A stretch of 64,000 nucleotides of DNA from Microbotryum violaceum. Taxonomy: Eukaryota. Below, one piece after another: positions 41,365-47,160 of this stretch. The notes below the pieces were generated by a model. It did not search any database. It saw only the letters and a program-made list of their open reading frames with translations, and was not told where the DNA came from. Made by a program: the position numbers and the translations under genes. Where the stretch lies: the NCBI GenBank assembly GCA_001244265.2, contig CDLV01000012.1, positions 434,001 through 498,000 of the forward strand. The letters are read 5' to 3'. Numbering within the stretch: position 1 is the stretch's first letter; every line of letters starts with the position of its first letter.

Positions 41365-42435
41365 TTAAGCCTCATCACGACGCGGTCGACCGGCGCCGAC
41401 GACGTGACGACGTTGAGGGCGACCTTCGAACGCGGAAGAGGGAGCGACAACATTGACGGGGATCGAGTCGAAGCCGAGCGAAGCCAACAGGTCCTTGGTG
41501 TCCGGGTCGACGTCGATCGCGGCACCTTGGTTGTCCAAAGCCGAGACCTCGGGGACGTAGTTGTCCTTACGCTCTCGTTCCTCCTCTTGCAACTTGAACG
41601 AGATACCTCGGACCGGACCACGTTGGATGCGCTTCATCAGGTGGGTCGTGAAGCCGGCGATCTTGTTCCTCAATCGCTTAGAGGGGATGATGGCGACCTC
41701 GTCGCAGATCTTCTTGTTGGTGTGGCTGTAGAGGGAGAGGTATTTAGGACAGAATTCGATAGCTGGCTATGGCCCCAGAGTAGAGGAGGACTCACAAGTC
41801 AAGGGTCAATCGAGGGTAGTACTTCTCGATGACGACTCGCGAGGCTCGCTTGACGGTCTTGGTGCGAACGCGTCCCCTGTGAGAGCATGTACGAGGAAGC
41901 AAGCCAGGCAAGGTGATCAGTCACTACTGAATCACGTCAATCCGAGCGGGTGTCGTCGTAGGCTGAATGTGATGGGACGGGTGGTGATGTGGTAGGTATG
42001 ACGGCATGGGTCGGGTCGAGTCGTCGGAGCCGAATTGCGTCGCGGGTGTCGGCCACGCCCGTCACCGCCAATCCCACCTCCACCTCGCATGGTGCTACAA
42101 CCCTCAAATCCCTCTTCCTTCCCACGACTCCATCCTCCCCGATTCATCCTATTCATCAACGCGCTACTCTGCGCTTCCTGCTCATCGTAAGAGCGGTCGT
42201 GGGGTCGCAGCGTCGACGGTGCCAACAAGGCGTGGGCAAAAATCGGTGCGAGGCGCCTAGGCGGGAACGGGCGGAGGGGAATTTGGGGGGAGTGCGATGC
42301 CGGTTGCTGAGGGCGACGGGTGACGGGCGACGGGTCGAACGGGCCCTATCGTCTGTTGGCGTTGGTGTTGGTGGATGGGGGTGCTATCGTCCAAAACCAT
42401 CGATCGAGGATGAACTGCACAGGGCATACTTACAT
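41365..42435 (-). CDS. RPS17: 40S ribosomal protein S17 (eS17)
   Basis: [21 protein letters not shown] and [39 protein letters not shown] split by a 557-nt intron (41877-42433). Confidence 0.97.
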
Positions 42436-42638
42436 GATGAACTGATAGTCGTGAGTGGTGGAGAGGGAGGTCAGGCGAGGCGAGGCGAGGCGAAGCGGAC
42501 GAGGCGTTGGCAGTCGACTTTCGTGAGCTTTCGTGAGCCCTTCCAACCTCTGGGCCTGAGCTGGCCACTGCGGTCAATTTGAGGCGCGTGGCCGAAACTG
42601 GTCAGAAAAAAATCTTAGGCTTGGGAGGGGGCGACGCG

Positions 42639-42639
<1 letters not shown>

Positions 42640-42676
<37 letters not shown>

Positions 42677-42707
42677 TGAGCGCCTGGGCCTGTGAGCGCC
42701 TGGGCCT
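42640..42707. repeat. (GAGCCT)x6 plus (GTGAGCGCCTGGGCCT)x2 in the divergent RPS17/RPS22 promoter
   Basis: Read directly from the sequence. Confidence 0.9.
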
Positions 42708-43112
42708 GGTGACGGCGTCGCTCGTCGTAGCTCGTCGTCGTGTGTAGTCGAGAGCGAGGCGTGCGACTCCTTGTTCCGTTCTCCACCACACACATACATA
42801 ACCCTTCAACCCCGCCTCGGCAGCTTCCTTCTCGACAGGTTAGTTCTCATCACATCATACACGCCTTCGAACATGGACTACACCATACACGGCACACCTA
42901 CACGTTGCCCAGCATCCTCGTCGCGCGTGGCCCTTTTTCCTGCGAATCCATCCCACGCCTACGCCTGGCTGGCCCTGGCGGTGAATGACGCTGACTCTCT
43001 CCTCCGTTGGTGTGTACAGGGCCTCCTTCTCCGCCTTAACTTTTATCATCCACCAAGCTCCTCCCCCCGATCACTAATCGGTACGCGAGAGTGATGCTAC
43101 AGCAACCTCCCC

Positions 43113-43316
43113 CTCCCTCGACCAACCTCAAGCTCTAAGGCTTTCGTCTCTACCCGCGCTCTCTCGAATCCGATGCGTTCGCGCGCCTGCGCCCGGCCGG
43201 AGCTCAGCCTGGCTCAGCTCCAAAAGGTCGGCTCGCTTGACCACGTCGCATCGCTTTCGAAGGAGTGAGCAGGAGAGACGTTCCCGAAAAGTTAGATGGG
43301 TTGGCTACCGAGGGAG
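43113..43316 (+). promoter_or_regulatory. Long nested stem-loop in a putative 5'-UTR intron of RPS22
   Basis: Six correctly nested perfect stems of 5-8 bp (listed under findings). Confidence 0.6.
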
Positions 43317-43434
43317 TATGGGAACATCAAGTACGAAAAGAGGGAAACGTGTTGTATTGACAAGACGGTATCGGCCCCCTTCCTTCTCTTTGCCCACATC
43401 TTTTCATTCATCCCCCTTGGCACCTTTGTAGAAA

Positions 43435-44069
43435 ATGCGTGTCTCCGTTTTGGTCAGTCTCTATGCAGCCTCACACGTTGGGGTGGGCTAAGCGCTGACC
43501 GTTGCTTTGTTTTGTTTCTTCGCAGGCCGACTGCTTGAACAACATCCACAATGCCGAGAAGCGAGGCAAGCGCCAGGTCTTGATCCGACCTTCGTCCAAG
43601 GTCATCGTCCGAGTTTTGACCGTCATGCAGAAGCACGGTTAGTCAAACCCGTCTTCTACTTGCTACTTGATGTCGCTTGATGATTGATGCCGTTTGTTTA
43701 TTGTTATCCAGGCTACATCGACGAGTTCGAGGAAATCGTGCGTTTCTGTGTCCCAGGCCCTAAAGCACACTAGCAACCCGCCGAACCCCATGAGAACTGA
43801 CCCCCCGCTCTCCCTCACTTCGAACTCTTGCATAGGACGACCACCGATCGGGCAAGATCGTCGTCCAATTGAACGGCCGCATCAACAAGTGCGGTGTTAT
43901 CTCCCCCCGCTTCTCCATCAAGAACGCCGACATCGAGCAATGGGTCACCATGCTCCTCCCCGCTCGTTCGTTCGGGCTCTTGATCCTCACCACCGACCAA
44001 GGTATCATGGACCACAACACCGCTCGTCGCAAGCACACCGCCGGAAAGATCTTGGGCTTCGTTTACTGA
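43435..44069 (+). CDS. RPS22: 40S ribosomal protein S22 (uS8/S15a)
   Basis: [58 protein letters not shown] and GKILGFVY. Confidence 0.97.
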
Positions 44070-44650
44070 ACGACGACTCCAAATACCGGTGCTGTCGTTA
44101 AGGGAACGGGGAAGGGAGGCAGGGAAACACGTGCAGTCTCTAAAAAATGGATCGACCCGTCAAGGGGGTCTGTTCCTAAGATGAGGGTTTGAATCCTCTT
44201 CTGCCCTTTTTTTCTTCTTTTCTTTCTTTTTGTTGATGGCTTCGCAACTTTCTGAAAGAGATACACACAACATTACCATCGCACACAAGTCTGATATTCG
44301 GGAGGGGAGGGGAGTTGGAAATGATCGATGGCCTTGGATTCCGCTGTCATACTTTATTGTCAGAGATGGGGAACATGATAGACGTGCACCCACGCGATGG
44401 GAACGTGTAGAGGTGCTCAGGTCATGAGGGAATGCAGAATTGCTCTGCAGAGGCACGAGCGTCGATCGGGTCGAGATTCTAGAGCTGAGATTTCTCTGCC
44501 GGCTCCACTAGGGGGACCCTTGAACTTTTCAGCAAATACAAACCGAGTGTAGCGAGAGCGTACAAGATTGCTTAACGAAAGTTCAACCCTTTTTTTTTTT
44601 TTTTTTTTTTTCTCCGAGGCTTGATCTATCTTATCTTGATCCTGCCCAGC

Positions 44651-44722
44651 TAGGGTCAGGATCGGATCGGATCCTAAAAATTAGGATCAGGATCGGATCG
44701 GATCGGATCCTATGAGAACCCT
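44651..44722. repeat. (GGATC)n quasi-palindromic array, possible MITE or transposon-end remnant
   Basis: AGGGT...GGATCGGATCGGATCCTAA-AA-TTAGGATCAGGATCGGATC...ACCCT. Confidence 0.55.
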
Positions 44723-45109
44723 TGGCACCAGCACACCTGATGCTGGCCTCGTAGCCGGCATACTTGCTGTGGCAATCATTCTTGCGCCCATTTATAGTTG
44801 ATGAGCCCGGAGTCGGATAGTCTCGAACAGCGTTGTCGGATGAGAATGAGGACGGTGAAGGCGAAGCACGGGCGTGCGTGTTCCGTGTGCGTGTGTTCAA
44901 GTTCGCGTGTGCGTGTCGTCAGATCGGCGTGCACATCATCAAGCAGCCGCACGCAAGTCATGATCAGCGAATCTCGCGCGTGTGTGTTCAAATCAAATAA
45001 AACGACAAAAGGCTGCCCATACCCCAGCACCGGGCGCTTGGTCGCTCGTCGAGCGTCTCGTGTCGGCCAAGTCTCCGACTGACCGACGTTTGTGCCGATC
45101 TCTATTGAA

Positions 45110-45216
45110 TCCTTAAAACTATATAATAAAATAGGCCGTCGAGACAAAGAACGTTCTAGAACGGGACAAACCACGTGGCGTGACGTCATGGCGCGCTTCG
45201 CGCGCCACCGCACTAG
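45110..45216 (+). mobile_element. Mini-Helitron, or 3' end of a longer Helitron
   Basis: Perfect 8-bp hairpin TGGCGCGC-TTC-GCGCGCCA (45189-45207), then CCGCA-CTAG|T; candidate 5' end A|TCCTTAAAACTATATAATAAA. Confidence 0.7.
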
Positions 45217-45377
45217 TAGTATATAATAAATGTCTTTGGTTTGGGCTTGGGGGCGAATTCCCTCACGACACGGCCCCGCGAAGAAACCGGCGGGGCAGCG
45301 CAAGCAAGGGGAGGCAAACCGGGGAGGCGGGCGGGAAAGCAAAAATCTAGGGGCGGTACCGGTGCCGGGGGTGCGCT

Positions 45378-45554
45378 TGCGCTAACTCGCGCGCGCCAGA
45401 TTGAGTTGGTGCAATTGAGTTAGCGCAATTGAGTTAGCGCACTTGAGTTGGCGCAGTCGAGCGCCCGAGTTAGCGCACTTGAGTTAGCGCACCGCGCGCG
45501 CTTGAGTTGGCGCACTTGAGTTGGCGCACTGAGTTGGCACACTGAGTTGGCACA
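45378..45554. repeat. Array of ten GAGTTRGYRCA motifs plus one inverted copy
   Basis: Direct copies at 45403-45554, mostly 13-14 bp apart; inverted TGCGCTAACTC at 45378-45388. Confidence 0.9.
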
Positions 45555-45559
45555 ATCAG

Positions 45560-47160
45560 GCGCGCCGCACGCGGCGATCCCCTTGTCTTCATGCTGCAAC
45601 GTGCCATATTTTACAATGCAACTGCTGTCACGCTTCTTTTGGAAACGAAGCGCCGATAACACGGATGCCAAAATGAAGCAGCTGGCAAAGCTATCTGGGG
45701 CAAGGCTGCAACAAGCAAAGGTCACTGACTACGGACTTGCGCCGGGGCTGGAGCTGATGTATGTATCTCGAACTACCCCCTTTCACTAGTTCCTTCCTCA
45801 GACGATACCGCTGTGCAAATTCTAATCGATCTCTTGCATTTCTTTGACCGGATCTATGTGTCCAAAAAACTGGCGCTGCCAAAGCCTTTGCTCGTGCGTT
45901 CTCCGATGCGATTTTCATCCCGAATGCGGATGATTGACTCCTGATGGAGGCTCGCCTAGCAAAACTCGGAACGACGTGGGAAGAAGCCGTCCGTTCGCCG
46001 GTATGGAATAAGAAGCTTTGGAGACGCGTTCGTCGATGGATCCCTCCGCCAGGCATTCTCGAGCCTTTGGTCCGGGAGGTCTTTGAGAAGCTCGGTTGAT
46101 GCGAAGTCGAAGCAACCACTTTTCAACAAAGCGGCGCACAAGGCAGCGAAGAGATGTCTTGAGGCGATTCGGAAAGGCCAAGTCTCGGATCCAGTTGGCA
46201 TCGAGCTGTACACCGACCTTGGCCCTTGCGGAGGGCCAGATGGAAAGGCGGATGACGGTGTCCGTGTATATTCCTGCCAGCGCGGCACCAACAGTCTCGA
46301 AGGAGGCATCCACCGGAACCTTCGCCAACGGTTTCCAAAGTCGGGTGTTTCTCCGTGCCATGCCAATGCGTGCTTGGCTGACTACGTGCTAGTGCACAAT
46401 CTCACGGTCAGTCCAACTCCACCATCGCAATTCGAAGAAGCGGCAACCATTCTCACCCATTATCCCTTGTATTCGCAAGTTGGGACGTCCAATCGTACCG
46501 GAAAACCATTCGTGGGGCACTACGGCCTCTGGCTCACTGTGGAATTAGATCGTCTGAGGCGCAAAACCTCGGCATTTTTCCCACGGCACTCAACCACCGT
46601 GTCAGATATAGTCAGCCCGCTGCTCTACACCCCATCCACCGAAACATTCGGCATCGTACTTGTTGTTCAGTCGCCAACAGCGCAAATGCGCTTTTTGATC
46701 GAGCCCTATCAAGTCGAGCGCGGGACTCTGCGTTTGGAGCCCGTCAAGTGGTCGCCACGGAACTTGCTGCAAAACAATACGCCGGCGATACAGCATATGC
46801 AAAGCCGGCTGCCAACTGATCGCAAGCTTCGCCACGACTGGCCAGCGAAACGTCAGGGTACTCGATTCGCTGTATTGTATGTCCATACACCCAGCGAACG
46901 AGCGCTATACAGATATCTCTCAAGCAAGGTACGACTGGGAGCTCCTCAAAATCTTCGGATATTCGAGATTACCGAGCCTTGGAACAAGTATGCCAACGGA
47001 CTAGACATCTTTTGCAAAGTATGTCGCGTCTGTGTCACACTGAATGGTGATGTTGAGCTGAAGCGCAATCCTCACACAGATGCCAGAGCACATCAATACA
47101 TGGGCACCGAGATGGTCGTCGCTGGCAAATGCTCAAGCCACAATGATGTCTGTTGAGCTT
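45560..47160 (+). pseudogene. Decayed DDE transposase, C-terminal half, with Dada-like (MuDR/IS256-related) motifs
   Basis: DLLHFFDRIYVSKK (DxxH), FARAFSDAIFIP, LWRRVRRWIPPP, QPLFN, GQVSDPVGIELY and YSCQRGTNSLEGGIH; in-frame stops and frameshifts; family assignment is from memory. Confidence 0.7.

Follow-up and report, generated by a model that had tools for sequence, protein, structure and literature searches.

A candidate uS8-feedback intron with an RNA rod upstream of the single-copy RPS22 gene of a probable basidiomycete

uS8 feedback sites and the RPS22 locus

Feedback through an RPS22 intron is proven in two ascomycete yeasts, and its binding site is without an accepted model. The 5'-UTR intron of S. 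cerevisiae RPS22B mediates intron-dependent feedback by Rps22 (PMC7732827, PMC13232506), with ~12-fold repression that needs a central stem and two bulges (PMC13232506; here and below, cited statements refer to the accessible part of each source). The variant table of that study gives the central stem as GA-A-UC opposite GA-UAC-C, with bulge mutants B2-B4 losing regulation, and the authors, Granas et al. 2026, could not align the element to the bacterial site (PMC13232506). The RPS22B structure contains an Rnt1 site (PMC4937481, PMC13232506) and is listed for Saccharomycetaceae only (PMC4937481). In S. pombe, splicing of the rps2202 intron is repressed by the level of S15a and coupled to decay (PMC4695336). 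The core of the bacterial S8 site is described as the pair G597-C643 with U641 and the invariant A642, pair 596-644 being A-U or C-G (PMC4176348).

The locus described here lies in a 64 kb window (the whole stretch of DNA that was analysed, whose coordinates are used throughout). Features of its 18S and proteins point to a probable Pucciniomycotina basidiomycete. Its downstream open reading frame carries a Ribosomal_S8 domain with yeast S22 as the top match among solved structures, and domain match, structure match and spliced contigs together define a four-exon RPS22/uS8 coding region at 43435..44069 on the plus strand, the one copy found in the genome. RPS17 lies head to head with RPS22 (41365-44069), as it does in several related loci (L039, L081 and L041), and the shared promoter in the window contains tandem GCCTGA repeats and GGGCCTG words (42550-42710).

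Transcript evidence came from the contigs of four runs among 17 listed, no run being recorded as RNA; the RNA nature of the X2, X14 and X15 contigs is evident from the GT..AG introns they skip and from the poly(A) in which X14 ends. The three coding introns are spliced in all three of these runs, whilst both 5'-UTR introns are spliced in contigs of X15 (one of the four). On the plus strand these contigs define a non-coding exon 1 (42801..42838, 5' end approximate; 42801-42834 is joined to 43016), an intron 1 of 181 nt (42839..43019) with ends GTTAGT/CAG, a non-coding exon 2 of 61 nt (43020..43080) and an intron 2 of 351 nt (43081..43431). An earlier note on this DNA, made from its letters, had placed the GTACGC donor of intron 2 at 43081 and its TAG acceptor at 43431, 3 nt before the ATG, and had thought a further upstream intron at 42839-43019 likely; both splice sites stand as given, the TAG ends at 43431 and is followed by AAA and the ATG at 43435, and the X15 joints bear out both introns.

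Contigs that contain intron 2 occur in X14 and X15, the X14 contig continuing into spliced coding exons and ending in poly(A), and the intron is transcribed as well as spliced. Contigs containing intron 1, or the RPS17 intron, are likewise present, so the retention of intron 2 is not special, and since contig depth is unable to rank isoforms our claim is limited to the existence of retained forms. Retention adds four upstream ATGs (43094, 43173, 43296 and 43318), none of which is in frame into the RPS22 open reading frame, so little protein is expected from such transcripts. No joint skipping exon 2 is listed in the contigs of the four runs, which cannot exclude skipping.

Within intron 2, matches of the YTRAY type occur at 43237 (inside the rod described below) and 43357 only; the latter is a candidate branch point, the non-consensus TTGAC at 43357..43361 on the plus strand, ~70 nt from the acceptor. 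The other RPS22 introns are 73-181 nt long. In the homologous intron of L039 (L039:2613-2665) a 7-bp stem buries the branch point, which lies ~90 nt before the acceptor. Two local structures lie around the donor of intron 2. A small plus-strand hairpin at 43067..43081 includes the first G of the donor (pairing probability 0.91-1.0) and has similar hairpins in L039 and L081; it is probably minor, and was rejected as a special feature of this donor, as the donor G is paired at ≥0.98 in four of the five RPS22 donors. The intron-1 segment 42911..42925 (plus strand) is predicted to pair with intron-2 positions 43084-43098 and thereby to bracket exon 2 and the donor (probabilities 0.92-1.0 for 42911-42924), a duplex that is modest against shuffles (29 of 1000 as good) and not conserved in L039 (208 of 1000). 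The 555-nt RPS17 intron exhibits no excess structure (z +0.96).

An RNA rod in intron 2 and its absence from relatives

Intron 2 folds into an unbranched RNA rod on the plus strand (43108..43323) with 76 pairs (52 GC, 20 AU and 4 GU) and an energy of -103.6 kcal/mol, its longest unbroken helix being 8 bp and its apex a 3-nt loop. The earlier note had drawn this structure from six perfect stems in nested order, and all six are exact reverse complements at the coordinates it gave. Five recur in the minimum-energy fold; the sixth, TCTAA/TTAGA, is absent as its segment pairs in another register, and the rod, put by the note at about 200 nt, is real but extends further. No shuffle of 200 was as good as the rod (z -5.89) and none of 100 as good as the whole intron (z -2.95). 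A composition-corrected scan of both strands of the 64 kb (2552 windows of 220 nt, step 50, on a grid set to start one window at the rod) ranks the rod first on the minus strand (-4.91) and second on the plus strand (-4.44), with the next value at -3.36. The third-ranked structured window contains a GGATC-rich inverted repeat (44640-44715), and a ~14-nt tandem repeat array (45400-45600) lies beside a 398-aa open frame (45960-47156) without a Pfam match; these repeats are possibly the end of a transposon.

The rod is enclosed between donor and acceptor and takes up 216 of the 351 intron nucleotides, ~135 nt remaining when it is folded out. Searching the 33 Mb genome with the rod returned one match, itself, where a MITE or fold-back element would be expected in multiple copies, and an Rfam scan of 41500-45500 gave two chance matches only. 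As the rod has only 4 GU pairs and its antisense strand folds better than the sense strand (-112.6 vs -103.6), a strand signal of selection on the RNA is absent. Between the arms, 4 of 18 mismatches are of transition type and there are 27 gap columns. Run X1 carries two substitutions and one insertion in intron 2, none in the stems around the loop discussed below; one substitution stabilises the rod and the other breaks a rod pair (depth 3-4, so they may be errors). The rod apex (43183-43217) carries words matching the RPS17/RPS22 promoter repeats.

For relatives, we kept 80 of 350 RPS22 relatives from a metagenome scan; a genome collection added 41 loci, most of them archaeal, and a viral collection none, so that no further useful fungal loci came from either. 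Neither blastn nor nhmmer found a significant match to intron 2 among the 80 loci, and none is rod-like. Three distinct loci (L039/L043, L081 and L049) resemble the window in the MRVSV start and in a 5'-region GTACG donor, and in L039 and L081 RPS17 is again head to head with RPS22; a comparable rod is missing from all: the two parts of the L039 intron give z +1.59 and +0.28, the L081 intron +0.30 and the L049 5' region +0.63, values that show no stability beyond that of shuffles. Conservation among relatives, one of the points on which the earlier note let its reading stand or fall, thus fails for the rod at the distance of the available relatives, and we infer that the rod is a lineage-specific scaffold. 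L049 lacks three of the coding introns, the last one being present, and its first 500 nt (L049:1-500) contain two candidate donors, at 16 and 281, on either side of a promoter-like cluster, an arrangement that suggests an alternative first exon inside the intron.

A compact motif upstream of RPS22 and a variant loop in the rod

A short stem recurs upstream of RPS22, with G-A-[A/C]-Y-Y as its left strand and R-R-[C-A-C]-U-C as its right strand. A fold-based descriptor detects a stem with A/C opposite YAC, no further than 400 nt ahead of the RPS22 exon-2 match, at 22 of the 67 related loci that have a sense exon-2 match and ≥200 nt upstream, near-duplicates and non-fungal loci included. About 16 distinct motif loci remain after near-duplicates, none of the 67 antisense strands carries the stem, and the sites lie inside 5'-UTR introns, across the acceptor or in the UTR. 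In 21 aligned instances from diverse fungi (L011, L013, L016, L018, L020, L022, L024, L026, L028, L033, L036, L041, L042, L044, L045, L052, L056, L058, L062, L063 and L073) the C-A-C is invariant, 87% of cells are paired and two-sided changes number 30, compared with 73% and 13 in shuffles of the alignment, 0 of 500 of which reach either observed value; the instances were chosen by pattern and the shuffle control ignores relatedness, both of which inflate the covariation.

A covariance model built from these 21 instances (R1) scores L032, outside the training set, at 29.7 bits and a weaker instance, L070:2029-2167, at 13.9 bits, from which long enclosed arms appear to score poorly. The same loop, on an extended stem, occurs at L067:413-440 and L072:340-367 in the 5' UTR of uS8 genes with non-fungal-looking proteins, so the reach of the motif may extend beyond fungi. 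Aligned by eye, the central bulge of RPS22B would correspond to the compact motif. Rfam holds no family for it. We did not find the broad RPS22 motif in print in the literature searched (subscription papers and bioRxiv supplements lay outside it), and S22, S15 and uS8 are unmentioned in the main text, supplements excluded, of two fungal RNA-motif screens (PMC5640933, PMC8216456).

The strict motif is absent from the 5' region of the window, where the only candidate is a variant loop near the base of the rod. Its left half (43113..43127, plus strand) consists of an 8-bp stem, the unpaired A43121 and a 6-bp stem, with pairing probabilities of 0.94-1.0, and its right half (43299..43316, plus strand) consists in the fold descriptor of the 6-bp stem, the bulge CUAC (43305-43308) and the 8-bp stem. 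A43121 is 85% unpaired and A43307 is unpaired at a probability of ~1.0. Descriptor matches in shuffles of the intron were rare (0 of 100 and 1 of 300) and absent from 358 background segments, figures obtained with a descriptor widened to a 4-nt bulge only after this loop had been seen; when the rod structure was held fixed and its unpaired bases reshuffled, such a loop arose at p 0.079 (~8%). Both pairs that never vary among the training instances are changed in the window's loop, which also carries one extra bulge base, and R1 found no match at this site among nine chance-level matches. Nor did R1 match the L049 or L039 introns, and in L081 it gave a partial, chance-level match (E 9.5).

By descriptor, the homologous intron of L081 carries an A over UAC between 5- and 4-bp stems, enclosing the branch point (0 of 200 shuffles), whilst L049 carries an A over CAC (1 of 100 shuffles) at a site which is upstream of the promoter-like cluster and may not be transcribed. 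The close homologue L039/L043 has no motif site by descriptor. Between the three loci with a loop the flanking pairs change on both sides, from C-G/G-C in the window to C-G/A-U in L081 and G-C/G-C in L049, and the two lower pairs vary step by step.

Set beside the bacterial site, U43306-A43307-C43308 supplies the Y-A-C with an unpaired A on the 3' strand of an asymmetric loop, and A43307 is a candidate equivalent of bacterial A642. The G597-C643 pair, the U641 triple and the A595 triple have no counterpart, as A43121 faces C43308 and the left side has no extra bulged A. The genome's own 18S uS8 site allows several candidate pairings in the ES6/h21 region, with no Rfam structure there. The 18S gene (L007:2159-4425, minus strand) contains a 464-nt insertion, not called by Rfam, which is probably a group I intron.

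Proposed feedback, its rivals and known systems

Our preferred explanation, to which we give a probability of roughly 0.6, is that intron 2 is a uS8-feedback intron like those of S. cerevisiae RPS22B and S. pombe rps2202, built on a lineage-specific rod. Folding of the rod would take out 216 of the 351 nt and bring the donor near a weak, distant branch point, and at the rod base A43121 and the facing C-U-A-C (43305-08) would form, between two stems, a mimic of the uS8 binding site. When nuclear uS8 is in surplus, it may then bind this loop, which lies ~40 nt away from the donor and ~50 nt away from the likely branch point, and either slow spliceosome assembly or mark the RNA for decay, which would close a negative feedback loop on the single-copy RPS22; the predicted duplex between introns 1 and 2 around exon 2 may add to the masking of the donor. 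The splicing or feedback element proposed in the earlier note is supported in this form by the S. cerevisiae and S. pombe precedents and by the uS8-site-like loop, but its functional part shifts: the loop would be the old, conserved part, and the candidate for function is one internal loop near the rod base and not the six stems.

The same evidence could be read without any sensing of uS8. The rod may be a passive 'zipper' that shortens the intron, or neutral, the loop having arisen by chance and the feedback site having been lost or moved in this lineage. The relatives do without a rod, the covariance model misses the loop, which is expected at p 0.079 given the rod, L039 has no site, and the ~135 nt left after the rod folds out match the size range of the other RPS22 introns (73-181 nt); yet many RPS22 loci keep a motif and no other candidate exists in this 5' region, the loop sits between two helices paired at 0.94-1.0, and L081 carries a loop in the same intron, so we consider this reading unlikely. 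The earlier note also named an RNase III substrate; in this reading the rod would serve mainly as a substrate for Dicer or an RNase III that destroys unspliced pre-mRNA or makes small RNAs, with no uS8 sensing. An Rnt1 site does exist in the yeast RPS22B structure (PMC4937481, PMC13232506). The genome encodes a Dicer with helicase C, Dicer dimer and two RNase III domains (a 1388-aa open frame at L132:3783-7949, minus strand), but we found no Rnt1/Pac1-like gene in it, although an intron-split gene could be missed. The only other RNase III match, weak and below the cut-off (L133:3346-3942), is perhaps a mitochondrial ribosomal protein. Rnt1 recognises an NGNN tetraloop, whereas the rod ends in a triloop and its longest unbroken helix is 8 bp, and we regard a nuclease substrate as very unlikely. 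If anything slightly less probable is an element acting as DNA, either an old fold-back or a promoter-type element in the intron with an alternative start site: the apex 9-mer (five copies in 64 kb) occurs otherwise twice in the shared RPS17/RPS22 promoter, the apex also holds the promoter repeat unit in two copies of inverted orientation, in L049 a promoter-like cluster is followed by a second donor inside the intron, and the antisense folds as well as the sense. Against it, the genome holds one copy, and the arms, with 4 of 18 mismatches of transition type and 27 gap columns, are unlike a decaying inverted duplication.

The remaining suggestion of the earlier note, an intronic non-coding RNA, would most concretely be an H/ACA snoRNA hosted by intron 2, perhaps a displaced snR44, and it is the least probable of these readings. 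The boxes lie in the expected order, with a long 5' hairpin, an H box ACAUCA at 43324, a second hairpin and an ACA at 43396, and 7 of the 20 related loci scanned (L013, L018, L022, L033, L042, L052 and L062) host snR44 in a coding intron of RPS22, whilst the matching intron of the window (43638-43711) is only 74 nt. Yet the intron matches no Rfam family, a search of the genome for snR44 (RF01262) gave nothing up to E 1, the second hairpin is no more stable than shuffles (z +0.48), and the best rRNA pockets are at shuffle level (38, 14 and 4 of 60 as good). This target scan, with pockets 13-17 nt from the box, covered 18S, 5.8S and the assembled part of the large rRNA, the 3' half of which was not found in the assembly and hence lay outside it; its sensitivity is limited, as it recovered the large-rRNA target for one of three control snR44 3' hairpins and the 18S target for none of them. 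An isolated large-subunit rRNA fragment lies on another contig (L006:5979-6571), the snR44 18S target context in the window's genome differs by one base, and L041:2739-2975 is a 237-nt intron whose first hairpin is snR44-like by eye, with no Rfam score. A C/D snoRNA was rejected, as a C-like box occurs at 43091 but no CUGA was seen in intron 2.

Returning to uS8 feedback, a broader proposal, to which we give even odds, is that the RPS22 5' regions of most fungi, and perhaps of other eukaryotes, still hold the uS8 feedback site of the bacterial spc operon in the form of a compact RNA motif. Its scaffolds would be freely rebuilt, the motif sitting over the branch point or acceptor, inside short hairpins or, as in the window, at the base of a 216-nt rod enclosing 184 nt. 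If true, this would supply the yeast-bacterial alignment that Granas et al. 2026 could not infer (PMC13232506), and would be the first basidiomycete case. What this locus and its relatives add is the lineage, the rod scaffold and a cross-fungal consensus tying the yeast bulge to the bacterial S8 core. A shared core of ~10 bases, covarying across distant fungi, names bases to mutate (A43121 and 43305-43308) and also offers a small RNA for binding or structure work.

Compared with known systems, the window is closest to the 'Hooks structure' of RPS22B: both belong to a uS8 gene with a 5'-UTR intron, upstream AUGs and a ~200-nt stem, and the variant loop of the rod would correspond to the central stem of RPS22B, in which an A faces a bulge containing UAC. 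However, there is no sequence likeness beyond a few core bases, the loop in the window is flanked by G-C/C-G pairs and has a bulge one base longer, the RPS22B structure is branched and has an Rnt1 site whereas the rod is unbranched, and yeast has an intronless RPS22 paralogue whereas the window's genome has one gene with two 5'-UTR introns. S. pombe rps2202 is similarly an intron of a uS8 gene under negative control, but works via Mmi1 and the exosome, in an account that mentions no RNA structure (PMC4695336). The snoRNA snR44 (RF01262) shares with the window an RPS22 host gene, and both an H-like box and an ACA occur in intron 2, but this is a different intron from that of snR44, with no model match and no guide complementarity. 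The bacterial S8 sites (16S helix 21 and its mimic in spc-operon mRNA) resemble the fungal motif in their asymmetric loop, whose 3' strand carries Y-A-C with its middle A unpaired, and serve autogenous control by uS8, as proposed here (PMC4176348). They differ in having G597-C643 and the bulged A595, where the fungal motif has A/C opposite C and no extra bulged A, and in their output, which is translation in bacteria and would be splicing or decay here. The likeness would point to a single feedback loop, based on rRNA mimicry, that persisted from bacteria to fungi while its output moved from translation to splicing.
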